Virus record (IMG/VR): IMGVR_UViG_3300037067_015211
Location: 64,001-128,000 of that record
Length of the DNA stretch: 64,000 bases
Source of the DNA: a virus
Lineage: Duplodnaviria; Caudoviricetes
Direction: 5' to 3' (one strand)
This document shows positions 2,623-48,811 of this stretch, in pieces (position 1 is the first letter of the stretch; the number at the start of each line of letters is the position of its first letter). Made by a program: the position numbers and the translations under genes. The notes under the pieces are model-generated. The model was not told the DNA's origin. It searched no databases and worked only from the letters and a program-made list of their open reading frames with translations.

Positions 2623-5600
2623 CTATTTGTTTTTTGTTAATTCATTGTATTTTTTCATTAGCAATTCTTTGTCCGCGCCTTTAACGTCAAATGTAAACTT
2701 ATAAATCCACTTTGCATTGCCAGACTTAATCACCATATTTTGAAGTACATTTATCTGTTCTGGCAACAAACCTTTAATTGCATCAAAAAAATTACCGCTT
2801 TTAAAAGTCTTAAACAACTTATTATAATCCACATCATAACCTCTTTCAGTGGGTAAAATACCCCTATACTTTTTCATTATTTTCTTAACATCCGGACTTA
2901 ACTCATCATAATAAGAATAAGGAGTTTTAGCAGAATACTTTTTATCTAGCACATCTTTAATCCACCTAGATTCACCCTTTTCAAACTTAGTAAAAATTGA
3001 TCCGGTATTGTGTTCAATATCATTGATTCTATCGATAATATACATTAGCTTTTTATGATCTGTTACAGAAGTATTTTTAAGGTCAATCAAATACTGAGTA
3101 ATAGCTGCCCATCTAGGTCCACCATATTGATAAGCCCAAGGAAGTTCATTAAATACCCTATGTGCCAATTCAAGGGGAATATAATCTCTTTCGCCATTCA
3201 AAATATGATCCGCTTGCTCTTTCGAAATATTTAACTTCTTTGCCAACTCATCTGCATTATTAATACCAGTTCTATTGCCCACATATCCAAAATACATATG
3301 CTCATCATATACCGCCTTGGTAAGATTCTTCACATATTCGTCTTTAACCTCTTCCAAAATCTGATAAGCCACTTGTTTATCTTCATCGTCTAACTGATCC
3401 ATCACAGTAGATAGAGCATAAAAATCATATACTTGTGATGGCTGTAAAGCTAGTCTTTTACGCCATGTATTGTATATCATATTTGCTGACACTTCCCATG
3501 TTTGTGTGGGTTCATAATATTTCTTTGCATCTTCTGGCTTCATGGACTCCGGAAAATCCATTTGTCGCATACCCGGATCCAACTCCAACTCTTCCACATC
3601 GCTAAATTCTTCGTATTCGCTTTTATCCGTTAGACTGTTGCTCTCACGTATTTTTCCCCTAACGAAATCTTCGAATCCTTGGTCATGAATTCCGTATGTC
3701 ATATCGCCCCAGACAAATATAAAATCACCGCAGGCATTCTCGTATCTTCTCAAATCAATCCTACCAAGTGGATGTTCTATTTCTTTATCGCCTTCTCTTA
3801 CCAAATACGCGACCATCCCGCCTCTGGCTATTTTGCTAAACACATATTGTTTCTCGTCCCCATGCATAAATCCAGCCGCTCCGTAGTTTTTTAACTCCTC
3901 GGGCCTCAATGTAAGGCAGGATGTCCATCCCCGGTCCGTGCTCATCCCAGCAATATCTTCCGGTTTATGCGTGAATACGATAAAATGCGGCTGTTGCGAT
4001 TTAATACCACCCTGTAAGCGATCTACAAAAATGGCTAGTAATTCAGGTTGGTCCTTTAGAAGCTTCCCTATGCCTATTTCTCGGCCTGTACGGGCATTTT
4101 GAGCGAGTCCTTGCCGATAATCAACAATTTGGTAACCGTTCCTGAGCAAATGAGATTCCAAGTTCCAAGGCACTTGAATTTTGTCTGCCTTTGGGGTGTA
4201 TGGAAAATATGTCCGCTCTTGCTGGAAGAGCAGCCCCCAAGTAAGTGATTTTGGTCTTTTCTTGGCATATTCTTCCGCCGCTTTTAACTCTTCTTCAGAA
4301 AGTTTGGATTGCTTCTGCCATGTGGTGTAGATAGATGCGAATTTTTTATTTTTTAACTCCTCATATTTTTTCATCAACAATTTTTTATTAGCTCCATTTA
4401 CACCTTCGGCAAAACGGTAAATCCAATGTTCATTGCCAGACCTAATTATTGCATCTTGTAATTTGGATATATTGACTCCCTTAATATCCTTGGCAACCTT
4501 ATAAATTAAAGGCCCATAGAAAAAAAGGTTTCCTTCCTCATCGTCGTTTGCGGTTTTCGCGGTTAGCCTATTTTCTACTATTTTTAGAGCATCTCTTTCG
4601 TCCTTAGTGTATTGACTTACTTCTTTTTTATCACTTTGTCCTTCAATCCTGCCAAAATTATCCAAAAAATATTGTTCACTTGAACGCCATAAATCATTAT
4701 TGCTTACAATCTCCAGCCAAGAATAAGTATTAAGCTTAGTTCCCATAACCTCTAAATTATTATCCTCGATCCACTTCCTTACGAACGGCATATACTCACT
4801 GTTTGGTCTACTATCGGACTTCCCATATACTTGCCAGACTTCATTGCCCCTTACATCAATCGTTACATGAGGCTCATTGGTAGAATCTCTTAAAGAATAT
4901 ATCTCTTTCTCGCCGCTCTCTACGTCCCGCCAATAATTTTCTCCCCCCACACAATGCCCCATCTTGTTGCCTTCTTCAACAAGATCGACATTACTGTGGA
5001 TATTTACCATCTTCATAGACTGGCCATCTACGGTAATTGTTTGGTCTCCTAGATGACCTACGCGGTATTCCTCTACTTTTTCTACGCTGGAACCGCCCGT
5101 ACCAATACGATGCCATTCATAAGAAGAATTAACCGCCTCATCATAAGACATATTTGAAACTTCTGCATATCCAACATCTATATACCAGTCATAAACTTCA
5201 TTTAAAGATTGCCGATTGCTCGAAATGTATCCACCCTTTACCCAGCCAACAAACTTTTCCATTATCGTTTGCATGCCACCTCTATCTGTTGGTGGATATT
5301 GTTTAACTATTCCTTCTATTCTAATCAAATATTTGCTATCATCTGCATTCAACTGTGACTTGTCTTCCTCTATCTCTAACTTTTTGTTGGGAATCAAAAT
5401 TTCCCAAGTCTTCTTGGAATCCTTTTGGGACAGGCCCATTATCTTAGTATAGTTGTTAATAATGAAGTTTGGGTCTTGCTTAATGGCCTTTATGGGTACC
5501 ACGACATTAGCCGGTAGATTAAACTCCTGTCTAACTAGGTCCGCTATCTCCTTACTTTTTACCTGCTCACCCTGCATGGAGTCTTGTAGCCTATCTACTA

Positions 5601-7116
5601 AACCAGCTAATAATTTCTTTGCAAATATTTGCCGTTGCCATGTGGTATGTATCAGCGATCCAGTTCTTTTTTGATATTCATTATCCATCAAAGCAACCGG
5701 TCCCTTATGATATTTTTCCCTACGAGTATTCTCATTCTGTAACTTCTCTTTCCAAAATGAAGTAACAGGATACTCGCCAAAAAATATCGGATCAACAGCC
5801 CCCATATCCCTACCTGACCACGTTGTTCTTACGCGATACGTTCCATCTGGATTAACGGCAAGAATTTGGGCACCCTCTTCAGTGGCATATCCATCACCGA
5901 TAATAATGGCTAAATCAGGGTTATTTTTAGATGTGGCAAATTGTTTGACCTTTTCTTGTCCTTCTCGTTTTTTTTCATAATTGGAATAAATCAATGACGC
6001 TTGTTTTTTGTTTTTCAATTCATTGTATTTTTTCTTTAATAATTTTTTGCCTGCCCCTTTAACATCTTGGGCAAATCTATAAATCCACTCTGTATTACCA
6101 GACTTAATCACAACATCTTGTAATCTGGGTATATCCGCGCCTTTAATATCTTTGGCAAACATATAGATCCACTCTGCTTTGCCAGTTTTAATTATTGCTT
6201 TCTGCAATTTAGATATATCGGCCCCTTTTACATTTTTTGCAAAATAAAAAATAAATTCTTCGTCTTTAGATTTAATTATTTGATCTTGTAATTTAATAAT
6301 TTGTTCTTTAGGTATAAAATCTCCGTATTTAGAAATATAATCAAATGCAAATATTCCTTCTGGGAATATATCATGATATCCCTTTTCGACATCTTCTAAA
6401 GCAAAATCTTGTAAATCCAATATAGTAGCAGTTATTTTATTGCTTTCAGCTAATTTGCTATTAACAAACTCTACAAAATTGTTGTCTTGAATACCGTAGC
6501 ATTCATTACTTCCAACAAAAATAAAATTGCCATTATTATCTCCATATCTCCTAATAGCTACTCTAGCCAATGGGGCTTCAATATTCTTATCGCTCTCTTT
6601 AATCAAATAGGCTACTAACCCACCCCTTTCTATTTTGTTAAATACTTGTTCATGGTGCTCACCGCCCCTTAAATCTACACAAGATTTCCAGTTTCTATCG
6701 GTAGATGATCCAGCTATATCCTCTGGCTTATGGCTAAATACTACCAATAAGTTTTCATTATATTGCTTAGCCTGTCCTTGTAGCCTATCATCAAATAGCT
6801 TTTTAAGGTCTTGTCTATTTTCCCTATTTAAAATCTTGCCTATCCCTATTGGTTGATTTTTGACCTTCTTCTTCGCCAATCCCTGTCGATAATCTACTAC
6901 CTCGAATCCTATAGAATCCAAAAATGCCTGAATCTCTTGAGGCACTTCTAGGGGCTGTTGTGTGGCTGTTTTATAAGGAAAATATGTCCGCTCTTGTTGA
7001 AAAAGCGGTCCCCATGTTAATTTTTTGCTACGCTTCTTGGCCGCTTCTTCAGCCATAGCAAGTTCTTCTTGGGATAGCTTGGCCTTTACTGTTCTTTTCC
7101 AAGTATCGTATATCAT
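2623..7116 (-). CDS. 1497-aa modular (polyvalent) protein: module A, repeats, small module, PcfJ-like domain, repeat, module A, module B, repeat; putative virion-delivered polyprotein
   Basis: Internal duplication of ERTYFPY...PEDIAG.STDR.W.SC. PcfJ-like EEGNKMGHCVG...IYSLRD...PHVTI...QVYGK.D.RP. Five copies of the IY.TW-type motif at junctions. Confidence 0.8.
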   Translation of the reverse strand: MIYDTWKRTVKAKLSQEELAMAEEAAKKRSKKLTWGPLFQQERTYFPYKTATQQPLEVPQEIQAFLDSIGFEVVDYRQGLAKKKVKNQPIGIGKILNRENRQDLKKLFDDRLQGQAKQYNENLLVVFSHKPEDIAGSSTDRNWKSCVDLRGGEHHEQVFNKIERGGLVAYLIKESDKNIEAPLARVAIRRYGDNNGNFIFVGSNECYGIQDNNFVEFVNSKLAESNKITATILDLQDFALEDVEKGYHDIFPEGIFAFDYISKYGDFIPKEQIIKLQDQIIKSKDEEFIFYFAKNVKGADISKLQKAIIKTGKAEWIYMFAKDIKGADIPRLQDVVIKSGNTEWIYRFAQDVKGAGKKLLKKKYNELKNKKQASLIYSNYEKKREGQEKVKQFATSKNNPDLAIIIGDGYATEEGAQILAVNPDGTYRVRTTWSGRDMGAVDPIFFGEYPVTSFWKEKLQNENTRREKYHKGPVALMDNEYQKRTGSLIHTTWQRQIFAKKLLAGLVDRLQDSMQGEQVKSKEIADLVRQEFNLPANVVVPIKAIKQDPNFIINNYTKIMGLSQKDSKKTWEILIPNKKLEIEEDKSQLNADDSKYLIRIEGIVKQYPPTDRGGMQTIMEKFVGWVKGGYISSNRQSLNEVYDWYIDVGYAEVSNMSYDEAVNSSYEWHRIGTGGSSVEKVEEYRVGHLGDQTITVDGQSMKMVNIHSNVDLVEEGNKMGHCVGGENYWRDVESGEKEIYSLRDSTNEPHVTIDVRGNEVWQVYGKSDSRPNSEYMPFVRKWIEDNNLEVMGTKLNTYSWLEIVSNNDLWRSSEQYFLDNFGRIEGQSDKKEVSQYTKDERDALKIVENRLTAKTANDDEEGNLFFYGPLIYKVAKDIKGVNISKLQDAIIRSGNEHWIYRFAEGVNGANKKLLMKKYEELKNKKFASIYTTWQKQSKLSEEELKAAEEYAKKRPKSLTWGLLFQQERTYFPYTPKADKIQVPWNLESHLLRNGYQIVDYRQGLAQNARTGREIGIGKLLKDQPELLAIFVDRLQGGIKSQQPHFIVFTHKPEDIAGMSTDRGWTSCLTLRPEELKNYGAAGFMHGDEKQYVFSKIARGGMVAYLVREGDKEIEHPLGRIDLRRYENACGDFIFVWGDMTYGIHDQGFEDFVRGKIRESNSLTDKSEYEEFSDVEELELDPGMRQMDFPESMKPEDAKKYYEPTQTWEVSANMIYNTWRKRLALQPSQVYDFYALSTVMDQLDDEDKQVAYQILEEVKDEYVKNLTKAVYDEHMYFGYVGNRTGINNADELAKKLNISKEQADHILNGERDYIPLELAHRVFNELPWAYQYGGPRWAAITQYLIDLKNTSVTDHKKLMYIIDRINDIEHNTGSIFTKFEKGESRWIKDVLDKKYSAKTPYSYYDELSPDVKKIMKKYRGILPTERGYDVDYNKLFKTFKSGNFFDAIKGLLPEQINVLQNMVIKSGNAKWIYKFTFDVKGADKELLMKKYNELTKNK
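2815..3480 (-). repeat. Module B copy 1; near-identical DNA to 37140-37808 and a more diverged copy at ~48180-48811
   Basis: MIYNTWRKRLALQPSQVYDFYALST...YGGPRW...DRINDIEHNTGSIFTKF...YDVDYNKLF. Confidence 0.9.
6010..6300 (-). repeat. 28-aa (84-nt) coding tandem repeat x3
   Basis: xxIIKSGxxxWIYxFAxD(I/V)KGADIxxLQ; further copies at ~4345-4510, ~2626-2745 and ~36705-37075. Confidence 0.85.
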
Positions 7117-7451
7117 GATTTTCGCACCTTCTTCTCTACCGCATTACAAATCTCGTGCGCCTCGTCGTATGACAAACCCATGTGTTTCATAAGCGTTCTC
7201 TCTATCATCTCGTGCAGGATAATCGGAAAATGCTGAGACGAATCAATGTTACCATCTATCCAAATTTCTTTGTCGGGAATAAAGGAGTATCTCTCTCCGT
7301 TACCACCCTCTACGAAATCCATTTCGTACTTTGTCTTTACGGCATCCCCGTCAACAATTTTTATCACAACATCAGTGTCTACGGGAAGGCGATTTTCTTT
7401 CGCTATTTCCTTGATTTTATTTATCATCCAAGTCTTGAAAATCTTGTCCAT
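7113..7451 (-). CDS. Small zincin-like protein (HExxE...YxxAH)
   Basis: EIWID...IILHEMIERTLM...SYDEAHE; N-terminus KIFKTW resembles the shared leader. Confidence 0.6.
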   Translation of the reverse strand: MDKIFKTWMINKIKEIAKENRLPVDTDVVIKIVDGDAVKTKYEMDFVEGGNGERYSFIPDKEIWIDGNIDSSQHFPIILHEMIERTLMKHMGLSYDEAHEICNAVEKKVRKS

Positions 7452-7595
7452 ATTGATATAATAGTCTATAGAAAAACTATTATATTTTTATGAGATTAAA
7501 AGATATTGGGAAAGATAAAGTACCAGCAAGAGAAGATGACGATCCATTCTTATGGTTCGTCCAAAATTTTAGACGAGAATTTCCAGTAAAGGACA

Positions 7596-7742
7596 ATGAT
7601 GACAAATCAAGAATGCCAAAAGCTAATAAAAGAACTTAGACGGCTAAAGAAATCACTAGATACGCCAGAAAAATCACTGAAATTCTTGGTAGATGCAGGG
7701 ATTTGCGCTAAAACAGGTAAGCTGTCTAAGAATTACCGCTAA
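7596..7742 (+). CDS. Small hypothetical protein (48 aa)
   Basis: Hand-translated MMTNQECQKLIKELRRLKKSLDTPEKSLKFLVDAGICAKTGKLSKNYR; SD AAGGA. Confidence 0.5.
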   Translation: MMTNQECQKLIKELRRLKKSLDTPEKSLKFLVDAGICAKTGKLSKNYR

Positions 7743-8364
7743 ATCTAAACAAAACCATATTTACATTATGTGTCTCGGGCAACACGCCTACCAACTCTAC
7801 TCCAAATTTTTGTAGCCTATCCAGATTGGGCTGTCCACCGCGCATAAGCAAATTATATGAATCTGGCGTCATGGAAGCCGCTAAATACTTGTATCCTTTA
7901 CCCTTTAACTGTTGCAAATAATTGATAAGCAACTTGGTTACAACGATTCCCCTCTTTACATCCGCCATACTCTTAAGCACATTAAAATTGGCCACGTAAT
8001 GCACTTTACCCTTTCTGGCAGACTTTAGGACATCCTTGTACAATGATTTGATGTTATCGGTCGTATAAAGCTGTATGTCCTTAAATTCGTCATAATCGGG
8101 TGCATTGTCCGTATTGATGAAATCATAGCCGCCTAGATAGCCCACGGGCTTGTTCTCGTCCTTGGCTATGTTAAACACAGCACCCGGCTGTTCCGTGTCG
8201 TCTATAAGGTCGTCCGCTGGCTGGGGACCATAATAGGTAAGGCCATCGCCAAATCCTTGCTCTTCTAACTCGGCTAGTTGATTGGCGGTCTGCTCGTCCA
8301 GTTTGTCTTTAACTTCCTGAACAATGATTTTCGCCAGCCGTCTGAGGTACGTTTGGTAAATCAT
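7726..8364 (-). CDS. GNAT-fold acetyltransferase-like protein with leader MIYQTYLRRLA
   Basis: PVGYLGG...HYVANFNVL...KRGIVVTKLL...GYKYLAA...SYNLL resembles GNAT topology. Confidence 0.55.
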   Translation of the reverse strand: MIYQTYLRRLAKIIVQEVKDKLDEQTANQLAELEEQGFGDGLTYYGPQPADDLIDDTEQPGAVFNIAKDENKPVGYLGGYDFINTDNAPDYDEFKDIQLYTTDNIKSLYKDVLKSARKGKVHYVANFNVLKSMADVKRGIVVTKLLINYLQQLKGKGYKYLAASMTPDSYNLLMRGGQPNLDRLQKFGVELVGVLPETHNVNMVLFRFSGNS

Positions 8365-8753
8365 TTACCATCTTCTTTTATTTTTATCGATTTATCAATA
8401 AAATATTTTTTATTAGTAATGTGTGTGCCCCCAAAACTAATTCCCAATAAAATTCCCATTCTTGTTTTCCACTCAGTTAGATACCCAACAAAATCATCAT
8501 ATTTATCGCCAATTGGAGTTGGAATTACATCCATACTTCCAACCGTAGAATAAAAGACTTTCTCTGTAACCTCTTGCATAGTATCGCTAAACCTATTAAT
8601 ATAGGCATCCCACTTACATCTAGCGGGGCTTGATGGGTCACACTTATCCATCGACCTAAACTTTTCTTTTATATCTCTAGCGTTCCAGTCTTCAAAGTTA
8701 AAATATTTTTTTTGTGCTTGTTTTTTTTCTTTCCAATTTTTAAATATTTCCAT
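8361..8753 (-). CDS. Hypothetical protein with leader MEIFKNWKEKKQAQ
   Basis: ORF with SD GAGG; ATGA overlap with the next gene. Confidence 0.65.
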   Translation of the reverse strand: MEIFKNWKEKKQAQKKYFNFEDWNARDIKEKFRSMDKCDPSSPARCKWDAYINRFSDTMQEVTEKVFYSTVGSMDVIPTPIGDKYDDFVGYLTEWKTRMGILLGISFGGTHITNKKYFIDKSIKIKEDGK

Positions 8754-8765
8754 GTTACCTCACTC

Positions 8766-8933: not shown

Positions 8934-8958
8934 TACATCTCTCCTATAATAGTTGTTT

Positions 8959-9545: not shown

Positions 9546-9546
9546 C

Positions 9547-9828: not shown

Positions 9829-9906
9829 TGGTGTTGTCCTTTAATTATGTTCATATGTTCCGTTCCGTCAACAAATATTTGCAAGTGCCTACGTTTAGCA
9901 ACAAAA

Positions 9907-9979: not shown

Positions 9980-9983
9980 AAAA

Positions 9984-10993: not shown

Positions 10994-11473
10994 TTATTTC
11001 TTAGCCGCCCCACGCCATACTTGGTCAACATTGGTATTTACCATGCCAGCTTCTTTTTCCTCGTCTTCCTTGCCCTCTATGGCCTCTTCTGGGGCATTTT
11101 CACCACCCTTGGCCTTCCCATCGCCCACAAGGGCCATAATGCTGTCCTGTAGCTCTGTAATCTCATCTGCGGACATTTCTTCGGTCTTTTTCATAAGCTG
11201 TTCAGCAAACGGCAACCATTTATAATAGTTTTTGTTCTCATCGATATGAACATTGGCAATCTTTTCGGCTTCCTTGGGGTCATCCGTATGCTCCATTTCG
11301 ATTTCTATGCCAACTTCAAGGTCTGAGTCGGCTTCAACTTCAGGAATCTCTTCCTTTACTTCTTCGGCCTTTTCTTCTTCGCTATCTTCGGGCTTGCCAC
11401 TATCCTTGTCGCCCTGCCATTGATTCTTTTCCTGCGCGACTCTATTTCTCTTCCAGTTTTCGAATGTTTGCAT
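10994..11473 (-). CDS. DUF5661-like acidic protein with leader MQTFENWKRNRVAQ
   Basis: GIEIEMEHTDD...IANVHIDE..NYY..L pattern. Confidence 0.65.
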   Translation of the reverse strand: MQTFENWKRNRVAQEKNQWQGDKDSGKPEDSEEEKAEEVKEEIPEVEADSDLEVGIEIEMEHTDDPKEAEKIANVHIDENKNYYKWLPFAEQLMKKTEEMSADEITELQDSIMALVGDGKAKGGENAPEEAIEGKEDEEKEAGMVNTNVDQVWRGAAKK

Positions 11474-11500: not shown

Positions 11501-11944
11501 TTACTCTCCACCAAAATATCCCGGGTCTTCCACAACATCACCAATATGATCGTCCAAATATTGACGCGCACTTTCAATGAACTCTCCGACCGTAACACCA
11601 CATACTTTACAATCAGTTGTACCATCTGTGTAAGGATGTCTGCATGGAGTAAAATTGGCCTGTGCATCAGCCAATGCTTTGTTTTCCTGTTCCGCAGTCC
11701 AATCTTCATCGAAAGCTTTTTTCTCAATCTCTTTAGTAAAATCCTTCTGCACCATTGCCGGACTCCAACCAAATGTTGAAGCGGTGCCCGGGAAGTCAAG
11801 ATCAGTTTGCACCAACATATCTTGCCCTGTGTCCAAATCAGTTACAGTATATGTTCCAAAATTGCTATAGCCAAGTTCTATCTGTCCAGCCTTAGTCTTT
11901 TTAGATGCAAGTTTCTTTTGCCGCCAATTTTCGTATGTACCCAT
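11501..11944 (-). CDS. Hypothetical protein with leader MGTYENWRQKKLAS
   Basis: SD AAGGA; C-x-H...CxxC near the C-terminus. Confidence 0.7.
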   Translation of the reverse strand: MGTYENWRQKKLASKKTKAGQIELGYSNFGTYTVTDLDTGQDMLVQTDLDFPGTASTFGWSPAMVQKDFTKEIEKKAFDEDWTAEQENKALADAQANFTPCRHPYTDGTTDCKVCGVTVGEFIESARQYLDDHIGDVVEDPGYFGGE

Positions 11945-32050: not shown

Positions 32051-32078
32051 ATTATATATATATTTTTCCATTTGTCAA
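32051..32078 (-). promoter_or_regulatory. Promoter TTGACA-N16-TATAAT
   Basis: Perfect -35 and -10. Confidence 0.75.
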
Positions 32079-33964
32079 ATACTTTTATATTTTTTATACA
32101 CAAAATTTGCAATTTCTTTAAACTGGGGCGAAAAGTCATTTTCATAAAAATTATCGAATTTAATAATATCTTCCATAAATCGTTCAATTTCATCGAGTTG
32201 TGCCGCATTTATTGTTAAAATATTGTTATTAAATTCATTAAATTTATTATCAATATTTGTCATTTTATTGTCAAAATTAGATAAAATTGGTGCATATTTT
32301 TCATTTTCATAAATATAATCAGATGTTTTTGTGTGTTTGGCCGCATAATCACCATATACATAATCAAAAGGATCATCTCCCGCTATTTTTATTGTACGAT
32401 ATTTTGAAAAAATTTGATTTAATTTAAAAATTTTATCTCCATCTTTTTTATCATCATTTTTCAACAATTGTATTGATTCCTTAATTTCTAAAATTTGCTT
32501 ATCAACAATAGCAATAAATTCATCTACTCCAATTACGGGTTTTTTTGTTTTAAGCAATCGGTCAAATACCCTCTTTTTTTTACCATCCTGTACAGCATCT
32601 AAAAGTTCAATGGCTCTATGTTCGTCCCACTTGGCAATTTTACCATATGTTATCATCAAATTGCCAACAATACGTCTCAAATTATTTAATAATATCTGTT
32701 TTTGTTCCTCATAATCCAAGCCTTTTGCCCTTATTTTATTAGAAAAAATAAAAGCCTTACTAGCCGCCACCTTCTTTTCTTCAAAATCTAAGTCTACAAA
32801 CAAATCGTCCAGTTCCTCTCCCATAAACAACAACTCATAGTAAAGGGCATCCACGGCCTCATACAACTCATCGGCGGATTGCAAATATTTGTTGTTCTCC
32901 TGACCGTACCGGGTTAGCTGAAACTGTGTTTCGGGTGTATAGCCCAAATTAAGATCCTTTATGTCCCCGCTATATACCACGCCCCATACTTGAATGAACT
33001 TCCTAAATGCTTGTTTTAATCTTTCCTCGTTCTTTTTCATCAACTGATGTCTCTGTTGCATCTTGTCCTGATTGCCCATGAACTGCTTCCAGAACAAAAC
33101 GTCTTTAGCTTCCACTCCTTCAGGACTTCCCGCTTGTTCTTGCGTAAATGGGCTATAAATCAACTTAGACGGCAGTTCTTCCAGCCTATATAGTTTATTC
33201 CTTACCTCAATAGCCAATAAGCCACAGTCATGCATACGTGCAGCAATTTGTACGACTCGCCTATGGATTTGATCCACCAAACTAATTTGATCCCCTTTAT
33301 AGTCCACCAAAATTTTGCTCATATCGGACAACTGCAATACTTTTCTTACCTTTTGCTCACCATCATTGAGAATATCTATCATTTCGTCTAGGTCGCCCTG
33401 CGCGTTCTTTATGTATCTCTTTAAGATTTCCTTACCAACTTCCACATCCTGCTTGTGGGTTCTCCAATTACTGGGAATATTCGGCTTTCTCCGCATGTCT
33501 AGTCTTTCGGCCTCGTATTGTTCTGGCTTTTTCTCGACCAACTTAAGAGTCTGGGGAGATAGAATAGGAGTCTTGACAGGCATACTGTGATATAACTCTT
33601 GTAATTCGGCTTGATCTTGGGCCGTTACTGGCAACCATTCCCTATTTTTAAAAATAGGTGTAATGATATTTTGCTTGAGTATGCCATTTAATTTGGCGTA
33701 CTTTTCTTCCTTAGGAATATCCTGTTTGTAGAGGTTCAATAGCTTTGCCAATTCTATCTGTAGGTTAAGGTCGGCTATTTCGGGCGATTCCTTTTCTATC
33801 TGTTGCAAAGCATTTTTTGTCTTTAGCAAGTCTTCTTGGAAATAATCTGATTTACCCGACAATAGAATATCCGCCAAATCACTGTTGAGATTGATTAGGC
33901 TTGTGGTAAACACCCTTGAACTGGAAATTTGGGCAATTCTATTGTTGTCAAATATTTGTCCCAT
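32075..33964 (-). CDS. 629-aa helical hypothetical protein; leader-like MGQIFDNNRIAQ and internal KKVAASKAFIFSNKIRAK / TIKIAG junctions
   Basis: Long ORF with SD GGAG; compositional shift after the internal motif. Confidence 0.7.
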   Translation of the reverse strand: MGQIFDNNRIAQISSSRVFTTSLINLNSDLADILLSGKSDYFQEDLLKTKNALQQIEKESPEIADLNLQIELAKLLNLYKQDIPKEEKYAKLNGILKQNIITPIFKNREWLPVTAQDQAELQELYHSMPVKTPILSPQTLKLVEKKPEQYEAERLDMRRKPNIPSNWRTHKQDVEVGKEILKRYIKNAQGDLDEMIDILNDGEQKVRKVLQLSDMSKILVDYKGDQISLVDQIHRRVVQIAARMHDCGLLAIEVRNKLYRLEELPSKLIYSPFTQEQAGSPEGVEAKDVLFWKQFMGNQDKMQQRHQLMKKNEERLKQAFRKFIQVWGVVYSGDIKDLNLGYTPETQFQLTRYGQENNKYLQSADELYEAVDALYYELLFMGEELDDLFVDLDFEEKKVAASKAFIFSNKIRAKGLDYEEQKQILLNNLRRIVGNLMITYGKIAKWDEHRAIELLDAVQDGKKKRVFDRLLKTKKPVIGVDEFIAIVDKQILEIKESIQLLKNDDKKDGDKIFKLNQIFSKYRTIKIAGDDPFDYVYGDYAAKHTKTSDYIYENEKYAPILSNFDNKMTNIDNKFNEFNNNILTINAAQLDEIERFMEDIIKFDNFYENDFSPQFKEIANFVYKKYKSI

Positions 33965-33965
33965 T

Positions 33966-35381
33966 TTAATACTCCATAAATTTATGCCACCATTTTATAA
34001 TATATTGTTTGACGTCTTCATTTTGCACCCAATTAATTATTTTTTTTGCGTCAGTTGTTCCAGTAAACCACTTTGTCATAGCCTTTAAATATTGAGGCTT
34101 ATTAACATCTAAATATTGAATTAATAATTTATCTACCCGCTCGTCATAGTCATTAAATAAAAATCTTGAAAAATCATAGGCATTTTCAGGAGACCCCGCT
34201 TCAACTATCCAATTAATTGTTTTGTTTATTTGATCTATATCTTCCCCACGACGCCAATAATTTTTATGCAAATAAAATATATCATTAAAATTTCCGTTTT
34301 CATATGCCTTATCAAACAATGCTTTTATATATTTATTGCTTCTTTCAAAAAAATAACCGCCAAAAATATCAGACGCAAATATATTATCAAAAACAATTTT
34401 TATTGGCATCCATTCAATAATGTTTTTAAACAAAATATCAAAGTCTATTATTTTCCTTAGATAATCTGTATAATAATTTTCCGATAAATTTTTTAGTATC
34501 AAAACTGTTTTGCCAATATTCCTTTTTTCTAAAACACTATTTAACATATTTTGTATTATTCTAGCATTAACTATTTGCTTTTCATCCTTTGAAAAATCTT
34601 GAATAGAAAATTGTGTTGGAAAAACGTCTGGATACCCCCCTTCAATATCTTTATATTTTTCTCCCCATTCATCGACTGTTTTTTCATTACTTTCATCAAT
34701 TTTATTTTGTACAAACTCTACAAAATTTTTATCTTTAACCCCATAGCATACATCGCTTGCCAAAAAAATAAAATCGCCCTTTTTATCTACATACCTCCTA
34801 ATAGAAACTCTTGCCAATGGATTTTCAATATTCTTGTCGCCCTCTTTAATCAAATAAGCCACCAATCCCCCCCTTTTTATTTTGTTAAAAACTTGCCTAT
34901 AATATTGATAAGAAAAATTTTCTCCCTCATCCCTTAAATTCATGCATGAAGTCCAATTTCGATCCGTACTCATTCCAGCAATATCTTCTGGTCTATAAGA
35001 AAAACAAACATATAGGTCTTCATTAGCACCCTTCATTTCTCCCTTTAATCTCTCGTCAAATACTTTCTTTAATCCAAATTCATTTGCCCTATTCAAAACC
35101 TTACCAATTCCTATCTTTTGCCCACTATCTTTTTTGACCGCAATACCATTTCTATAATCAATAATTTCATATCCTAGCTTACCCAACACATCAATAATTC
35201 TCTTATTAGGCTTTAATGCCTGTTCTTCAGCACCAGCCTTCTTGTACAAAAAATAAGTTCTTTCCTGTGGGAATAGTGGCCCCCAACTTAACTCTTTATT
35301 GCGCTTTTCAGCCGCCTTTTCCGCCATAGCCAATTCTTTTTCGGATAGCTTGGCATTTCTTAGCCATGTCTTGTATATCAT
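33966..35381 (-). CDS. Module A protein (third copy) with leader MIYKTWLRNAK
   Basis: LSEKELAMAEKAA...ERTYF...PEDIAGMSTDRNWTSCM...PLARVSIRRY; SD GAGGA before ATG 35381. Confidence 0.8.
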   Translation of the reverse strand: MIYKTWLRNAKLSEKELAMAEKAAEKRNKELSWGPLFPQERTYFLYKKAGAEEQALKPNKRIIDVLGKLGYEIIDYRNGIAVKKDSGQKIGIGKVLNRANEFGLKKVFDERLKGEMKGANEDLYVCFSYRPEDIAGMSTDRNWTSCMNLRDEGENFSYQYYRQVFNKIKRGGLVAYLIKEGDKNIENPLARVSIRRYVDKKGDFIFLASDVCYGVKDKNFVEFVQNKIDESNEKTVDEWGEKYKDIEGGYPDVFPTQFSIQDFSKDEKQIVNARIIQNMLNSVLEKRNIGKTVLILKNLSENYYTDYLRKIIDFDILFKNIIEWMPIKIVFDNIFASDIFGGYFFERSNKYIKALFDKAYENGNFNDIFYLHKNYWRRGEDIDQINKTINWIVEAGSPENAYDFSRFLFNDYDERVDKLLIQYLDVNKPQYLKAMTKWFTGTTDAKKIINWVQNEDVKQYIIKWWHKFMEY

Positions 35382-35385: not shown

Positions 35386-35799
35386 TTATGTCCTCTCATA
35401 TATCCATTCCTCATGAGAACCATTATAAATAGCCTCATCTATGATAGCCTGCGCCCACTGCCACATCTTCTGCGAACCATTATTTCCAAATGCGTCAAAG
35501 AACTTCTCCGCCACATCCTGATCCACCTTTACCGTAGCCTTGGTACAAAATGTTTTGTAGTTGTTCTTTTCCCTATATTCTTTTTCAGTATCAAGCTTTT
35601 TCTTTAATGCCAGCACATCTTGTTTATCGAAATACAGACGTTCATGGGTGCCGGTGGTAAAGAATTCAGATTTATTTTTGTTGGTATATTTGGCCTGTAG
35701 AAAGCCTCTCTCAACATACTTGGCTACATGCCAAGTATCTGTGTCTAGCATTAGGGCCGCTTCTCTGCTGGATATGATGTCTACGTTTTTTTTGAACAT
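35386..35799 (-). CDS. MerR/excisionase-like HTH protein
   Basis: ISSREAALMLD.....VAKYVERGFLQA...LYFDKQDV. Confidence 0.6.
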   Translation of the reverse strand: MFKKNVDIISSREAALMLDTDTWHVAKYVERGFLQAKYTNKNKSEFFTTGTHERLYFDKQDVLALKKKLDTEKEYREKNNYKTFCTKATVKVDQDVAEKFFDAFGNNGSQKMWQWAQAIIDEAIYNGSHEEWIYERT

Positions 35800-37808
35800 T
35801 ATATTGCGCTTAATCTATTAAATTCATTGATGCCATTTTGCCTATTGCCAAATATTTTGTTTGTAATTTCTTCGTTAGAAATGCCAGCCTTTAAGGCAAT
35901 ATGAATTAAATTTTTTAATCCATTATGAGAAAGTAAAGCATTACCTACTTCGTTAAAATCATTTGTTGCCGACCCATGTTGTATTGCTTGCCATATTTTC
36001 ATAAGATCGTCATGTGATATTAATTTGCCATTTACCCAGATCATATCTTTTAAAAAAATATTGCCAAATTCAGATTCAATTTCACGCAATGTCTGGTCAA
36101 TTTGCTTATCTCTCATAAGCCCAACCACAAACTCATTGTATTTATTGGCCGCATTTTCTAAAAATGAAAGTAATTCTTGCCCAACGGCACCAGTGATTGC
36201 AGTTTTAGGAGTATTGCCAATCTTTTGAGAAACCTCTTTTACAAATTTATCCATAGGCAATTGAATGTCTTTATAATGCACAATTATTTTTTCCGCATTT
36301 ACACCATATTGTATCGCCCTTGTAAATGCCTGAACATATTCTGGAATGTCCTCTTCATGGTAAATATAATCATTGCCATCTCTACACCATACAGAAATAT
36401 AATTATTTGAATTTATTTTTCCACTATTTTCAAGATGTTCTAACAACTCATATCCTATATGATGTTCGTCGCTTCTAGCAACCGGAACAATGTAATTATT
36501 GTCAAGCGAGATTAACACATAGCCAACATCATCCCATTTGCCTTCTTCGCCCCCAGAGTTAGCCAGCAATACCTTTGCTTTCCAATTTTTTATATTGGAT
36601 AAATCTCCTGAAATCTTATAATTTCTTCGTATTTTTGTTGGAATAGAAAATGATTGTTGTGCTTTTCTTTTCCAAGTATCGTATATTAATGATCCTTGTT
36701 TTTTGTTTGTTAATTCATTGTATTTTTTCATTAGCAATTCTTTGTCCGCGCCTTTAACATTTAGGGCAAACTCATAAATCCACCCTGCATTACCAGACTC
36801 AGACTTAATCACAGCCTCTTGCAATCTAGGTATATCCGCACCTTTAATATCTTGGGCAAACGTATAAATCCAATATGCACCACCAGACTTAATCACTTCT
36901 TCTTGTAATCTAGGTATGTCCGCGCCTTTAACATCTTTGGTAAACAGATAAATCACCCGTGCATTACCAGACTTAATCAATGCCTCTTGCAATCTAGGTA
37001 TATCCGCACCTTTAATATCTCTAGCAAACGTATAAATCCAATATGCATCACCAGACTTAATCACTATATTTTGAAGATTATTTATCTGCTCTGGCGATAA
37101 ATTATTAATCGTATCATAATCATAATTTTTAAATTCTTCAAACAACTTATTATAATCCACATCATAACCTCTTTCAGTGGGCAAAATACCTCTGTATTTT
37201 TTCATTATTTTCTTAACATCAGGGCTTAATTCATCATAATAAGAATAAGGAGTTTTAGCAGAATACTTTTTATCTAGCACATCTTTAATCCACGCAGATT
37301 CACCCTTTTCAAACTTGGTAAAAATTGATCCCGTATTGTGCTCGATATCATTGATTCTATCAATAATATACATTAGCTTTTTATGATCCGTCACAGGAGT
37401 ATTTTTAAGGTCAATCAAATATTGGGTAATGGCCGCCCATCTAGGTCCACCATATTGATGTGCCCAAGGAAGTTCATTAAATACCCTATATACCAGTTCA
37501 AGAGGAACATATTCTCTCTCACCATTCAAAATATGATCCGCTTGTTCTTTCGAAATATTTAATCTTAAAGCTAATTGATAAGGATCTTCAATGCCAGTTC
37601 TATTGCCTACATATCCGGAATACATGTGCTCATCATATACCGCCTTGGTAAGATTCTTCACATATTCATCTTTAACTTCTTGAAGAATCTGATAAGCCAC
37701 TTGTTTATCTTCATCATCTAACTGATCCATCACAGTAGATAGAGCATAAAAATCGTATACTTGTGATGGTTGTAAAGCTAGTCTTTTGCGCCACGTATTG
37801 AATATCAT
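35799..37808 (-). CDS. Modular protein: leader, module B, 28-aa repeat x4, internal leader, unrelated C-terminal module
   Basis: MIFNTWRKRLA start with ATGA overlap; internal GSLIYDTWKRKAQ. Confidence 0.8.
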   Translation of the reverse strand: MIFNTWRKRLALQPSQVYDFYALSTVMDQLDDEDKQVAYQILQEVKDEYVKNLTKAVYDEHMYSGYVGNRTGIEDPYQLALRLNISKEQADHILNGEREYVPLELVYRVFNELPWAHQYGGPRWAAITQYLIDLKNTPVTDHKKLMYIIDRINDIEHNTGSIFTKFEKGESAWIKDVLDKKYSAKTPYSYYDELSPDVKKIMKKYRGILPTERGYDVDYNKLFEEFKNYDYDTINNLSPEQINNLQNIVIKSGDAYWIYTFARDIKGADIPRLQEALIKSGNARVIYLFTKDVKGADIPRLQEEVIKSGGAYWIYTFAQDIKGADIPRLQEAVIKSESGNAGWIYEFALNVKGADKELLMKKYNELTNKKQGSLIYDTWKRKAQQSFSIPTKIRRNYKISGDLSNIKNWKAKVLLANSGGEEGKWDDVGYVLISLDNNYIVPVARSDEHHIGYELLEHLENSGKINSNNYISVWCRDGNDYIYHEEDIPEYVQAFTRAIQYGVNAEKIIVHYKDIQLPMDKFVKEVSQKIGNTPKTAITGAVGQELLSFLENAANKYNEFVVGLMRDKQIDQTLREIESEFGNIFLKDMIWVNGKLISHDDLMKIWQAIQHGSATNDFNEVGNALLSHNGLKNLIHIALKAGISNEEITNKIFGNRQNGINEFNRLSAI
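36705..37075 (-). repeat. 84-nt coding tandem repeat x4
   Basis: AATCTAGGTAT recurs at ~36823, 36907 and 36991. Confidence 0.9.
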
Positions 37809-38716
37809 ACCACTCTCCCACGCCACTTTATTTCTACAGGCCATACCGAGTCCTTCCCACTCGTATACTTCTCGGGAATGATCTGTACAGCCTTTATGTT
37901 TGCCACAGCAAAAGACTTTATTGTATCGTCAAGATCGTCAAAAGCAAACAAATATTTCCTTCTAGTGCCCATCCTCTTAACCAGCTTTACACGATACGAG
38001 AATGGCTCTACCACATATATCTTTATCATGCCCTGTTCAATATCTCCCGTATCTGGCAATCTCTGGTATTGGAATTTGACCTTCAACCTATTTTCAGCCG
38101 CAAACGCAATCGCCTGAGCAGGAGATAGCTTCCCACCCTTGACGCGCCAAATCTCTTGCCACTCTTCATCTGTAAGGGGCAAAAAGTCTTCTGATATAGG
38201 CAATTTTTCTTTAGGCTGTACTTGTTTTACAGGCACTTCCATCGTAACGGGCGCAGTAGGCGGCTTAGGCACATCAACATCTTCCAGCTTTTCAGCCGGT
38301 CCACGAGGTCTGATCTGGGCCACACGTAACCCATTAATGATTTTGTCGGCATTGTTTACATGACACTCAATTACCTTCCGAGTCCCTGTGGGAAGCGCAA
38401 TACTCTTTCTCTCCCTATCCACTACCTTTACCGCAATATGTTTACCATGACCATCGAAACAAATCATTGCAAACGGCAATGGACAATTCATAGAATGAAA
38501 TGTAGCCCCATCGCCTAAATCATCGAATATAAGAGCAACATCCTCCGGAACATCAGAATATTTGGTTAATCCAGCGGATCGCTCTTGAGGGGTTTCTAAA
38601 TATAGGTACTGCATACTATCTCCGATAATATTTCTAGTATCATAGGGAAAATTATTGCCTTTATAGAATTTTTCCTGTTCAGATTTTTCTTGTCTTTTCT
38701 GCCAAATATGGTACAA
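37805..38716 (-). CDS. DUF192-like domain fused to a WYL domain; leader-like YHIWQKR
   Basis: ERSAGL...ALIFD...FHSMNCPLP..MICFD...KVIE (DUF192-like); KFQY...VEPFSY...YLFAFD...IKSFAVANI (WYL). Confidence 0.65.
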   Translation of the reverse strand: MYHIWQKRQEKSEQEKFYKGNNFPYDTRNIIGDSMQYLYLETPQERSAGLTKYSDVPEDVALIFDDLGDGATFHSMNCPLPFAMICFDGHGKHIAVKVVDRERKSIALPTGTRKVIECHVNNADKIINGLRVAQIRPRGPAEKLEDVDVPKPPTAPVTMEVPVKQVQPKEKLPISEDFLPLTDEEWQEIWRVKGGKLSPAQAIAFAAENRLKVKFQYQRLPDTGDIEQGMIKIYVVEPFSYRVKLVKRMGTRRKYLFAFDDLDDTIKSFAVANIKAVQIIPEKYTSGKDSVWPVEIKWRGRVV

Positions 38717-38723
38717 TTCAATT

Positions 38724-41580: not shown

Positions 41581-41582
41581 AC

Positions 41583-42296: not shown

Positions 42297-42298
42297 CC

Positions 42299-44820: not shown

Positions 44821-44839
44821 CAAACAATTTTGCTATACT
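44812..44839 (+). promoter_or_regulatory. Promoter TTGCAT-N16-TATACT (TGn-extended)
   Basis: Upstream of SD AAGGAG and ATG 44860. Confidence 0.5.
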
Positions 44840-44859
44840 AGAAGAAAAGGAGAAAAGAA

Positions 44860-45959: not shown

Positions 45960-46671
45960 AAAATAAGACAATAATTTTAGCCCAATTGATAAATGGAGCA
46001 AGCCATTCCGTTTCTCCATGAGTAGCCATTGAGGGTATTGGTGAAACCAATGTCTTGCCCTTTCTACCAACTACAGTAAAATAAGCCTTGCTATTTGTGT
46101 GCGTATCATTATTGTTTCGTATAATAGCGTCAAACATATCTGCATCGTCTATTAGCGTTTTTACCTTGGCGGCAAATGTCATTGGCGTACTGGGCACGAA
46201 CACCCAGTGGCTATTGTCTGTCGTATAGCACTTGGTGGGCCAAGAGTCTCTATTTTCTTTCATGTATTTATCTGGATGATCGTATAGCGTAACATAATCT
46301 GCTATTGCAATGCCTTCCATTAGTATCTGGGCAGAACCAGCGCAATGTATGTAATCGTTTTCAACAAAATAAATGACATCTTCTGGATTGTTGTTTTTAA
46401 CCGCGTGATCGTAGGCAAATATAAAACTTTTTCTATTGGCCACTGAAGTTCTGAATATTTCCGTTATTTTATCGCCATGCCTATCTTTTAGTATGTTGTA
46501 GGTTTCGTCAGTTACGTTGTCTGCCACAACATATAGTTTGTCATATTTGAAATTTTTTAAAAAATTGTTGAAACAATTTTTATTACATATGTATTCTGGC
46601 TTTACTTTGCAAAACCCTTTATCACTTAGGCGATAATAAACAATTATTTGTCCAGACAAACTTTTGCCCAA
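45811..46671 (-). CDS. GT-A fold glycosyltransferase (phage type); start and 3' end uncertain
   Basis: IYFVENDYIH, DYVTLYDHPDKY, STPMTFA, THGE. Confidence 0.75.
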   Translation of the reverse strand: MGKSLSGQIIVYYRLSDKGFCKVKPEYICNKNCFNNFLKNFKYDKLYVVADNVTDETYNILKDRHGDKITEIFRTSVANRKSFIFAYDHAVKNNNPEDVIYFVENDYIHCAGSAQILMEGIAIADYVTLYDHPDKYMKENRDSWPTKCYTTDNSHWVFVPSTPMTFAAKVKTLIDDADMFDAIIRNNNDTHTNSKAYFTVVGRKGKTLVSPIPSMATHGETEWLAPFINWAKIIVLFFILTFVGSRITSYLLHRTVQPQFYRLQTVQSQVHDTDEYAPLYCTPKTF

Positions 46672-47339
46672 TCAATACGAGTGGCTAACCAATCGACCTC
46701 TCCATGTGTTGAATAAGAATGAATCGGAGTAATCAGCCTTCTATTGTTACATCGTGAGCCAGTCAACACACTAAATATTCCGGCATCGTTAGGGTGATTA
46801 TATGGTGATTCGTCAATAATGGCATCAAATACCCATTTGTCCTGCTTCAGCGTCGATACCTTAGCCGCAAATGTCATTGTAGTTGAACCCACTTTTGCCC
46901 AATGCGTAGACTTTGTGTGATAAAGATATGTGGGAACTTTATCTTTATGCTCGGGCAAATATTTGTCAGGATGGTCATACAGGCTTACATAATCTGCTAT
47001 TTCTATCCCCTCTTCCAATATCTCTCTTGAATGGGGAAGGTGGATGTAATCGTTTTCCACAAAATAAGCAATCGTATCGTCTGGCAATACAACTGACAAA
47101 TTCAGTGCATGCTTAAAGCTAGTCTTGTTCCCAAGCTTTGTTCTTCGTAATGTTTTGTATGGAAAATACGCCAACCACTCATACGTCGAATCACACACAT
47201 TGTCCGCCATGATATGAAGTTCATCATATCTGAAATTTTTAACAAAATTGTGCAAACAATTTTGTGGTGTTACAAAATATGGTTTTCTCTTGTCAGCACT
47301 TACATCGCTAGTACGGTAAAATACAACTACATTGGCCAT
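46644..47339 (-). CDS. GT-A fold glycosyltransferase, paralog of the previous gene
   Basis: AYFVENDYIH, DYVSLYDHPDKY, STTMTFA, THGE. Confidence 0.8.
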   Translation of the reverse strand: MANVVVFYRTSDVSADKRKPYFVTPQNCLHNFVKNFRYDELHIMADNVCDSTYEWLAYFPYKTLRRTKLGNKTSFKHALNLSVVLPDDTIAYFVENDYIHLPHSREILEEGIEIADYVSLYDHPDKYLPEHKDKVPTYLYHTKSTHWAKVGSTTMTFAAKVSTLKQDKWVFDAIIDESPYNHPNDAGIFSVLTGSRCNNRRLITPIHSYSTHGEVDWLATRIDWAKVCLDK

Positions 47340-47376
47340 ATAATTCCTTATCTAAATTGTAAAAATAAGTATACCG

Positions 47377-47760
47377 TTAAAATTCAAAGAATGCAAGTGG
47401 TTTCCGATATAATTCTTTAGGCTTATTGTCCGGTGCTTTAGGCTTATTCTTTACCTTCTGCAAATACCAATTAGAGTCTTCTACCACATTCTCATTCCAA
47501 CTATGATAATCGGTTAAATGGCCGAAAACAAGATGGTGGGTTTTGCAAAGAGACACTAAATTTGTGGGTTCTAGTTCTAGCTCTGGATGAATCTGATATG
47601 GCTTGACATGGTGCACTTCGATATTTCTTGTCGTCCCACAGGCTATGCAAAATGGATGTTTTTTGACATGCTCTTTTCTGATCGTAGGCCAATCTGAAGA
47701 ACGAAGCTTATAGCCAAATATGGAGTTTATGCCGACTGATTTTAAAAAGTTAAACACCAT
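47377..47760 (-). CDS. HNH endonuclease
   Basis: CIACG...EVHHVKP...NLVSLCKTHH...H. Confidence 0.85.
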   Translation of the reverse strand: MVFNFLKSVGINSIFGYKLRSSDWPTIRKEHVKKHPFCIACGTTRNIEVHHVKPYQIHPELELEPTNLVSLCKTHHLVFGHLTDYHSWNENVVEDSNWYLQKVKNKPKAPDNKPKELYRKPLAFFEF

Positions 47761-48811
47761 ATGTCTTTTCCAAATAGCCTAAAGAATCTTCTGCCTGTTT
47801 GCCGTATTCTCGTAATTTTTTTATAATATATCGCAATGAAGATTTAGACAAATAATTTATCATATTGTATAGCCCTTTACCAAACTGCAAAAAATCAACA
47901 ATTTGTTTACCACTTTTGTCTTCTAGCAAAAGATCAATGATTTGTTTTTGTTGGGCAGTCGATGCAAAAAAATAAACCGCCGCTAACCAATCAATTTTTT
48001 TTGAGTTAATCACAAATTCATAAAATTTAGCAAAAATTGGTTGTGGCAAACGTCTAATATAATCGAAATATTCATTTTCAAGATCATTTTCAAGATCATT
48101 GTCAACAATATTAGAAATAATTGATAATGGAGTATTTGCAATTTTGTCCAGTACATCACTCCACTTTTTTGTATCTTCAATGTATCCATGCTCTTTCGTG
48201 GTCAACCCACGATACTTGGACATGATTCTTTTTACTTCAGGGCTTAGCATGTTGTAATATGTGTATGGGGAGCGAGCCGCGTACTTCAAATCAAGAACTT
48301 GTTCAATCCATTTGTATTCCTGATGCTTTTTGAATTTAGTAAATATTGAACCAGTATTGTGCTCTATGTCATTAATTCTATCTACAATAACCATAAAATT
48401 CTTGTAATCCTCTACCGGCGTATTGGCAAGATCAATCAATAATTTGGTAATCTCTGCCCATTTAGGACCACCATATTCATCTTCCCAGTCCAGTTCATTA
48501 AATGCTCTATACATAGTCTCCAAGTCAAGCGGTTGGCCCAAACTTATTTGCTTTGCTATATTATCCGAAACATTCAAAGTTTTTTGTATGTATCTCCACT
48601 CACCCTCTACATAATCTTTCGCATGTCTAAATTCATCGTTTACGGCCTTTGTCAAGGATTCTATATAATCTTTTTTCACTTCCTGTAACACTTGAAATGC
48701 AATTGTCTTGTCCTGTTCATCTAACAAATCAAGCACAGTAGAAAGTGCATAGAAGTCATATATTTGGCTTTGTGTAAGAGCCAATCTTTTACGCCATGTA
48801 TTGTATATCAT
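47750..48811 (-). CDS. Module B protein (third copy) with leader MIYNTWRKRLA
   Basis: YDFYALST...YGGPKW...DRINDIEHNTGSIFTKF. Confidence 0.8.
   Translation of the reverse strand: MIYNTWRKRLALTQSQIYDFYALSTVLDLLDEQDKTIAFQVLQEVKKDYIESLTKAVNDEFRHAKDYVEGEWRYIQKTLNVSDNIAKQISLGQPLDLETMYRAFNELDWEDEYGGPKWAEITKLLIDLANTPVEDYKNFMVIVDRINDIEHNTGSIFTKFKKHQEYKWIEQVLDLKYAARSPYTYYNMLSPEVKRIMSKYRGLTTKEHGYIEDTKKWSDVLDKIANTPLSIISNIVDNDLENDLENEYFDYIRRLPQPIFAKFYEFVINSKKIDWLAAVYFFASTAQQKQIIDLLLEDKSGKQIVDFLQFGKGLYNMINYLSKSSLRYIIKKLREYGKQAEDSLGYLEKTYGV

Follow-up and report, generated by a model that had tools for sequence, protein, structure and literature searches.

The capsid targeting sequence (CTS) of T4 is reportedly the subject of work by Mullaney and Black in 1996. 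In the form MKTYQEFIAE, targeting by the CTS depends on residues 4 and 7, its processing is directed by residues 8 and 10, and the sequence is removed from IPI, IPII, IPIII and Alt by the prohead protease gp21 (PMC9026906). Here we describe a leader of similar layout, referred to below as the tag, in an uncultured phage of the Caudoviricetes (IMG/VR record IMGVR_UViG_3300037067_015211, 212,568 bp). The stretch under study comprises 64,000 nucleotides, bases 64001-128000 of that record (the window; coordinates given as genome positions refer to the whole record). The tag, M(x)-I-[YF]-x-[TSN]-[WY]-[KR]-[RK]…A-[QSK], stands at the start of many proteins and at the joints of two long open reading frames (ORFs). 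We propose, with moderate confidence, that it loads cargo into the head and marks a predicted cut by the head protease.

The tag resembles the T4 CTS in being a short N-terminal leader common to otherwise unrelated, non-essential-looking proteins (the unrelatedness is partial here), in carrying a processing motif, here a candidate one, at its end, and in belonging to genes that are scattered and vary between relatives. In both leaders the aromatics stand at a spacing of three, occupying positions 4 and 7 in tags of the M-x-[IT]-[YF]-x-x-W class, which is a parallel of sequence only. They differ in that the tag consists of I-Y-x-T-W and a basic run leading to Ala, whereas the T4 leader ends in L/I-x-Glu; in the protease, which belongs to another sequence family here (phrog_18299, the PHROG of T4 gp21 being phrog_207) and is fused to scaffold; and in the number of carriers, about 19 against a handful in T4, with tandem and internal copies found here. 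The analogy to T4 internal proteins, drawn earlier in a sequence-only reading of the window, is borne out as far as the leader is portable between proteins, and does not extend to the protease, which is not of the T4 family.

Head proteases of the phiKZ type cut after Glu. In phiKZ, 201phi2-1 and SPN3US the prohead protease removes N-terminal propeptides from many proteins inside the head, in some cases by several cuts (PMC10052503, PMC7411985). These are jumbo phages with paralogous cargo families, as is the case here; most of their propeptides, however, are 111 to 254 residues long and have no common short tag, compared with 10 to 15 residues for the present tag, and the x-Glu consensus (S/A/G-x-Glu, gp175/gp245-type) was absent from the expected place in the tags and junctions. 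In P1, the large anti-defence protein DarB has an N-terminal signal that suffices for its own loading into the capsid and for that of a reporter (PMC9024508); DarB is a single protein, has no sequence likeness to the proteins described here, and comes with no described protease-site logic.

The nearest concept for the long ORFs is that of the polyvalent proteins, long multi-module proteins for which packaging, entry together with the injected DNA and perhaps cleavage into parts have been proposed (Iyer et al. 2017, PMC5512222). Polyvalent proteins combine two to 15 domains of disparate activity, often with a peptidase of their own, whereas the longer of the two ORFs here has five modules, of which only the PcfJ-like one, a link to conjugative plasmids, is recognised and none is recognisably enzymatic, and the cutting proposed is by the head protease at tag-flanked joints. 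The herpesvirus assemblin-scaffold system cuts at (V/L/I)-x-Ala↓Ser (arrows mark known or proposed cuts). It is likened to the present system on sequence features, not on fold: in both, the protease is fused to scaffold and the cut, proposed here, follows Ala and often precedes Ser. Here, however, the virus is a bacteriophage, P3 is basic rather than aliphatic, and there are proposed cargo leaders, which are not known from herpesviruses. New with respect to the T4 principle would be the protease-scaffold family, the basic cut motif ending in Ala, the number of carriers, and the occurrence of copies in tandem and inside ORFs, flanked on two sides by cut-like sites.

The tag at protein starts and at the joints of fused genes

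Among 23 copies of the tag, the consensus positions are Ile (17/23), Tyr or Phe (22/23), Thr, Ser or Asn (21/23) and Trp or Tyr (23/23), followed by K/R, R/K and an Ala before Q, S or K. The strict pattern matched 21 times in the called genes, as against 4.2 ± 1.9 in residue shuffles; 11 matches began at most five residues from a start codon, where 0.11 were expected and the shuffle maximum was 2. A chance origin of the tag is excluded by these shuffles. With the extra carriers found by scans looser than the strict pattern, about 19 genes carry the tag genome-wide, and 5 further copies lie inside two long ORFs. All fifteen sites listed by the sequence-only reading, at protein starts and at junctions, are present where it placed them, on the minus strand; its list of carriers was too short, further ones lying outside the window (Table 1), among them a second PcfJ-like protein (genome 8603) and a gene adjoining the portal gene (genome 204577). 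The copies fall into two classes, M-x-[IT]-[YF]-x-x-W with aromatics at positions 4 and 7, and M-I-Y-x-T-W with aromatics at positions 3 and 6; degenerate tags open a 659-aa (amino acid) protein of the head module and a 629-aa protein of the window.

Two of the listed sites are less secure. MDKIFKTW is present at the start of the 112-aa gene and is a weak copy, having no basic half. YHIWQKR, at the start of the 303-aa gene, is doubtful: in the syntenic relative L015, two stop codons and a TATAAT box stand in its place (window 38680-38720, read as 'LYHIWQKRQEKS'), and to judge from this comparison it is probably untranslated leader DNA and not a true tag. The start of the 303-aa gene is itself uncertain, because the LYHIWQKRQEKS stretch is homologous to a promoter-like stretch with stops in L015. 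In agreement with the sequence-only reading, N-terminal copies are absent from the recognisable replication, packaging and glycan enzymes; FIYNTYRENL, inside a DegT aminotransferase (window 43085, residue 276), fits the loose tag pattern and is most likely a chance match.

The codons for Ile, Tyr, Thr and Arg/Lys vary synonymously among the copies, which indicates that selection acts on the peptide. Of the five internal copies, four lack a start codon or ribosome-binding site that could be used, the exception being the copy that opens the fifth module of the 1497-aa ORF (A5), which retains its Met; a translation or RNA signal at the start codon is excluded by this and by the synonymous variation.

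The carriers had been described as unrelated, which is correct in part. In composition the tagged proteins range from acidic and low-complexity to globular, and several of them are paralogous: an alpha family comprises modules 1 and 4 of the 1497-aa ORF and the 471-aa protein, and to a beta family belong the 353-aa protein, module 5 of the 1497-aa ORF and the opening part of the 669-aa protein. A homologous domain, termed gamma, moreover precedes three of the five junctions. Counted with this paralogy and the shared upstream domain in mind, the tag therefore occurs in roughly 12 to 14 independent contexts.

The internal tags mark the joints of fused genes, as the sequence-only reading had suggested. 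In the relative P0043, module 3 of the 1497-aa ORF is a true N-terminus (MIFKTWQRQIFAK...) and is followed by gamma, a tag and alpha, so that modules have been shuffled at tag boundaries; the last domain of the 669-aa protein, H2, exists elsewhere as a stand-alone protein with a leader of its own. These comparisons support the view that the long ORFs are fusions of tagged modules. Overlooked in the earlier reading was a second cut-like site just before the internal tags, which consequently have one upstream and one downstream (..NKKQA↓S-LIY....; ....KRKA↓QQ). If the upstream site were cut, the new N-terminus would be S-L-I-Y, which equals that of native tagged genes minus their Met (MSLIY.., MSIFY..). 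Four of the five [KR].[AG][QS] sites in the 1497-aa ORF lie at tags or junctions, as do six of seven [KR]-x-[AG]-[QS] sites when both long ORFs are taken together. In three small tagged proteins, the first [KR]-x-[AG]-[QS] site is at residue 11.

A head module of the phage G type and the K/R-x-A motif

The genes of the head module are on the minus strand, beyond the limits of the window. They encode a 294-aa capsid protein of the HK97 fold, similar to phage G gp27 (E-value of 1.1e-22 against PDB 6WKK), a 149-aa protein in the position of the phage G capsid-decoration gene, a portal, and a protein of 1162 aa. A candidate for the prohead protease presupposed by the sequence-only reading is a domain of this last protein, residues 68-212 of which match the head-maturation protease profile phrog_18299 (6.7e-15), the rest being acidic, coiled and scaffold-like, with a zinc ribbon. 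Judged by these matches, the 1162-aa protein is a protease-scaffold fusion of the phage G type. The nearest protease from a cultured phage is gp19 of phage G (tblastn E-value 5e-16, covering 92% of the domain), and a gp27-like capsid protein together with a gp19-like protease (phrog_2522 and phrog_18299) places the module with that of phage G. The Pfam profiles of the T4 gp21 (PF03420) and HK97 (PF04586) proteases had zero matches in the genome, and the protease domain matched nothing in Pfam, NCBIfam or the PDB sequences. Kinship with T4 gp21 was rejected on a direct profile comparison (hhalign E-value of 0.37, not significant). By these comparisons the predicted head protease is phage-G-like and not T4 gp21-like.

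The motif in which the tag ends is enriched in the head proteins. In the eight proteins of the head module, [KR]-x-A-[QS] occurs 17 times, compared with 3.7 expected from per-protein shuffles (p<5e-4), and eight permuted motifs of the same composition gave 1 to 8 occurrences; the head module of a relative has 15 occurrences, with 2.6 expected (p<5e-4). In phage G, the head block gp4-gp27 contains [KR]-x-A-[QS] 15 times against 4.6 expected (p about 0.003) and K/R-x-A 75 times against 44.7 expected, with the reversed motif at expectation, and the non-head block gp28-gp46 has no enrichment. Between this phage and the relative the scaffold part is 36% identical, and four of its six sites have kept their place: TQK[IM]A↓Q, KK[KM]A↓Q, KR[IV]A↓S and R[VI]A↓Q. 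The protease domain ends in K-x-V-A here and in K-V-A↓S in phage G gp19, where it recalls the release site of herpesvirus assemblin. K/R-x-A is therefore a plausible candidate for the site of the head protease on sequence grounds: as first put forward, the site finds support in the enrichment in three head modules and in the four conserved scaffold sites, and is weakened by a varying P1' and by the lack of enrichment of a stricter pattern.

Tagged genes also occur beside the head genes. Three consecutive genes just upstream of the portal begin with tags or near-tags (MGVFDRYKKNQRKKA, MNIFKKFAGSK and MYEETIYQTWMRRKAQQ), and their homologues in a relative with a portal of 59% identity keep the leader (MGVFEEYKKQQ, MGIFDDFRAGKK and MSLIYEAWKKRSQ). 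The protein downstream of the tagged portal neighbour begins MKKKA↓QQ here and MKKNA↓SD in the relative. At 183-186 kb, two more tagged genes are found in the company of virion-type genes, and one of them codes for a 264-aa protein that is highly acidic. In the head block of phage G (JN638751, record 903-33544), a separate leader, R-[LI]-[KIL]-[KS] within the first 11 residues, occurs in eight of 43 genes, compared with 0.06 expected; leaders of this M-K-R-L-I-K-K type open gp5, gp9, gp10, gp12, gp13, gp17, gp20 and gp38.

Portability of the tag and the families of candidate cargo

Searches with the beta protein or the portal in viral_contigs, and with the portal in metagenome_contigs, found no close relatives; the relatives used in the comparisons came from protein-cluster searches. 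Close relatives identified in this way retain the present tag. One of them, 71% identical to the 353-aa beta protein, has MIYRTWFRKRMA↓L behind GGAGG, and two alpha proteins carry a tandem duplicate of the tag (MIFNTWRKKTSA↓SIYNSWLSRREIKA↓KLS and MIYKTWNKS-KIYDVWLKSA↓KLS).

More distant homologues keep the domain and exchange the leader. H2 (residues 385-669 of the 669-aa protein) belongs, according to a full-database search, to a large family of stand-alone proteins of ~300 aa, whose conserved domain opens at F-x-IP-x-KI, the very point that here follows ..KRKAQQ. In these homologues, 10 to 20 residues of unrelated leader precede the domain, many of them T4-CTS-like and ending in L/Y-x-E (MNFQELYFKE, MKRFKTYLTE, MSVLKYLQEA). 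Distant members of the alpha family begin M.KF..LYNLILEE, a leader that neighbouring genes also have, both in a T4-like contig and in a TAG-recoded phage of 403 kb. In the contig ERZ28436055 (403,703 bp, TAG=Q), a run of genes begins M-N-K-F-[DN]-K-[LI]-Y, and the leader of the alpha homologue ends in I-L-Q-Q where others have I-L-E-E. In Pseudomonas phage Lu11 (JQ768459, ~158-163 kb), at least five consecutive genes (Lu11_0202, 0204-0207) begin M[KR]IQLAVA, one of them being an alpha-family homologue. The tag is also not integral to the modelled fold of the H2 module: in an AlphaFold2 model of residues 329-669 of the 669-aa protein, built with 23 homologues, the predicted local distance difference test (pLDDT) score was above 90 for H2 and below 50 for the tag segment. 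For this module, then, the refuting outcome named in the sequence-only reading, a tag that forms an integral part of the fold, did not arise. Leader exchange and model together support the tag as a portable leader outside the folded domains.

The label of effectors, earlier given to the tagged proteins, is unsupported, as the PcfJ-like domain is the only one recognisable in any carrier. This domain occurs in two carriers, and module A3 matches Pfam PcfJ at 5e-10 and phrog_3169; the other carrier domains matched nothing recognisable in Pfam and PHROGs. The alpha family is widespread in jumbo phages, and in the ESM Atlas it matched unnamed viral clusters only. The gamma domain (window 36651-37103, with three copies in 2623-7116) is helical, comprises ~120 aa and ends in ..KYNEL.NKK; it has over 700 database relatives at E<1e-10, often in up to nine repeats per protein, and sometimes adjoins AAA_5 ATPase domains. 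H2 (window 35799-36620) has the invariant motifs D-E-H and G-x-K-N...H. Its model gave a best Foldseek E-value of 0.14 against solved structures and, with VIA-align, only generic helical-bundle matches (Z up to 8.1), and neither the H2 region nor the gamma region had a tblastn match among cultured phages.

Table 1. Tagged genes, fused ORFs with their junctions, and the protease-scaffold gene. Positions are window coordinates unless marked as genome; arrows show proposed cuts.
Feature	Position	Strand	Sequence or remark
Fused ORF, 1497 aa	2623..7116	-	five tagged modules (paralogy map): alpha 1-375, A2 375-488, PcfJ-like A3 488-928, alpha 928-1213, beta 1213-1497
N-terminal tag of 1497-aa ORF	7078..7116	-	MIYDTWKRTVKA↓K
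Junction 1 of 1497-aa ORF	5953..5997	-	..NKKQA↓S-LIYSNYEKKREG↓Q; cut-like sites on both sides of the internal tag
Junction 2 of 1497-aa ORF	5617..5658	-	..QKRTG↓S-LIHTTWQRQIFA↓K
Junction 3 of 1497-aa ORF	4300..4338	-	..NKKFA↓S-IYTTWQKQSK; opens second alpha module
Junction 4 of 1497-aa ORF	3445..3480	-	..VSAN-MIYNTWRKRLA↓L; opens beta module, Met kept
112-aa gene	7113..7451	-	weak tag MDKIFKTW
212-aa gene	7726..8364	-	MIYQTYLRRLA↓K
130-aa gene	8361..8753	-	MEIFKNWKEKKQA↓Q; aromatics at positions 4 and 7
159-aa acidic gene	10994..11473	-	MQTFENWKRNRVA↓Q
147-aa gene	11501..11944	-	MGTYENWRQKKLA↓S
629-aa gene	32075..33964	-	degenerate leader MGQIFDNNRIA↓Q, kept in relatives L015 and L017
471-aa alpha-family gene	33966..35381	-	MIYKTWLRNA↓K
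Fused ORF, 669 aa	35799..37808	-	tag-beta-gamma, internal tag, H2 domain
Junction of 669-aa ORF	36621..36656	-	..NKKQG↓S-LIYDTWKRKA↓QQ; immediately ahead of H2 (F-x-IP-x-KI)
303-aa gene	37805..38716	-	'YHIWQKR' start, doubtful as a tag
353-aa beta-family gene	47750..48811	-	MIYNTWRKRLA↓L
Carriers outside the window	genome 1893(+), 5340, 7212, 8603, 50858, 183599, 185212, 204577, 208687		
Protease-scaffold fusion, 1162 aa	genome 198982-202470	-	scaffold part with CxxC...CxxC zinc ribbon (Pfam Zn_Ribbon_1, 2.9e-05), kept in relative L021

Proposed role of the tag and its alternatives

In the mechanism we propose, the tag would be a portable N-terminal leader that recruits accessory proteins to the assembling prohead. 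Its front half, I-[YF]-x-[TSN]-W with the aromatics three apart, would dock on a scaffold core supplied by the 1162-aa protease-scaffold fusion, and its basic half would close with a site for the head protease that the phage itself encodes, approximately [KR]-x-A with Q, S or K next, so that cutting after the Ala would free the cargo inside the head. As the internal tags have a cut-like site on both sides, we propose that the chains of the long ORFs are cut into their modules and the tags excised. We infer that the cargo docks, is cleaved, resides in virions and is delivered to the host, and consider its injection into the host less probable than its loading and cutting. Only tentatively do we suggest a phage-G-like lineage in which a head protease specific for K/R-x-A is combined with a single tag that acts both as the address for head loading and as an excisable linker cut on two sides. 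Tagged cassettes could, on this tentative reading, fuse, split, duplicate in tandem and reshuffle between relatives with loading and release preserved.

A number of observations weigh against loading and cutting. The protease was named by a single PHROG profile and has no Pfam S77 or S78 match, and an AlphaFold model of its domain, from an alignment of two sequences, reached a pLDDT of only 31. The stricter pattern [KR][KRQ]x[AG][QKS] is not enriched in the scaffold, and positional conservation is lacking for the sites of the 659-aa head protein. A number of tags read A↓L or A↓K at their end or are devoid of Ala (KQS↓K in A4, the second alpha module), so that P1' varies and the definition of the site is loose. 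The R-Q-R-I-A-Q of the capsid protein is kept into the N-arm of phage G, and this stretch may, on that comparison, be structural rather than a cut site. Lastly, most tagged genes lie outside the structural block, and an amphipathic helix of aromatic and basic residues might just as well attach to a membrane or to another hub.

The last two points favour the alternative that survives best, in which the tag docks a partner other than the prohead, be it the inner membrane, a hub protein of the phage, a chaperone, or a host protease for which it serves as a timed degron, and the enrichment of K/R-x-A in head proteins is unrelated to it. By the consensus, aromatic and basic residues lie on opposite faces of a short helix, and the majority of carriers are encoded away from the structural genes. 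We nevertheless consider this unlikely, given that two related phages have three tagged genes immediately upstream of their portal gene, that the tag ends in the motif specifically enriched in three head modules, and that the same cargo families elsewhere bear leaders resembling the T4 CTS, for which loading into capsids has been demonstrated.

A smaller chance attaches to head targeting without cutting, by which the protease does not act at K/R-x-A and the products of the fused ORFs enter the head intact, like the N4 virion RNA polymerase and P1 DarB. The N-terminal signal of DarB acts as a targeting sequence, 42 head proteins of SPN3US are uncleaved, and the loose site and the unconserved positions in the 659-aa protein fit such a role. 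Speaking against uncut packaging are the enrichment of the correctly oriented motif in three head modules, scaffold sites that form conserved islands, and cut-like sites flanking the internal tags on both sides.

Least probable, and in our judgement a slim prospect, is that the tag has no signalling role and is either the conserved N-terminal helix of one old, fast-diverging superfamily or a recombination linker, the internal copies being relics of recent gene fusions. Many carriers do belong to paralogous families (alpha, beta and gamma), copies of one gamma-tag junction make up three of the five, modules are reshuffled between relatives, and the Met retained in the A5 copy is what a recent fusion predicts; but H2 and alpha homologues keep the domain and swap in unrelated leaders, the tag is unpacked in the modelled fold and is duplicated alone in tandem in relatives, the tagged proteins differ greatly in composition, and the divergence of the codons speaks against a role that depends on DNA identity.

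If loading and cutting are real, about 7% of the genes (roughly one in fifteen) encode protein carried in the head. The cargo would mostly be without recognisable function, and some families would recur as tagged cargo across very different phages. The T4 principle of capsid targeting would extend to a different protease-scaffold system, which cuts after Ala with a basic P3, and tag-flanked joints would explain how long phage 'polyproteins' are assembled from shuffled cassettes and taken apart again. The tag would offer a route, from sequence alone, to listing candidate virion cargo in uncultured jumbo phages and, as a defined loading signal, would be useful for packaging foreign proteins in large capsids. 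Phage G, which is in culture, shares the K-x-A enrichment and has a head-module leader too, and makes the idea directly testable.

Genes similar to IS605 OrfB / TnpB (Cas12f-like TNB domain) are inserted in two relatives, beside cargo genes in L015 (L015:12006-13247) and just after the capsid gene in L021 (L021:11418-12611). The genome studied here has two similar TnpB-like ORFs, at genome 10535-11797 and 154638-155852, with the common stretches NFFRNCK.KKKGKKGFPRFK and RLQKKHSKKQKGSK.

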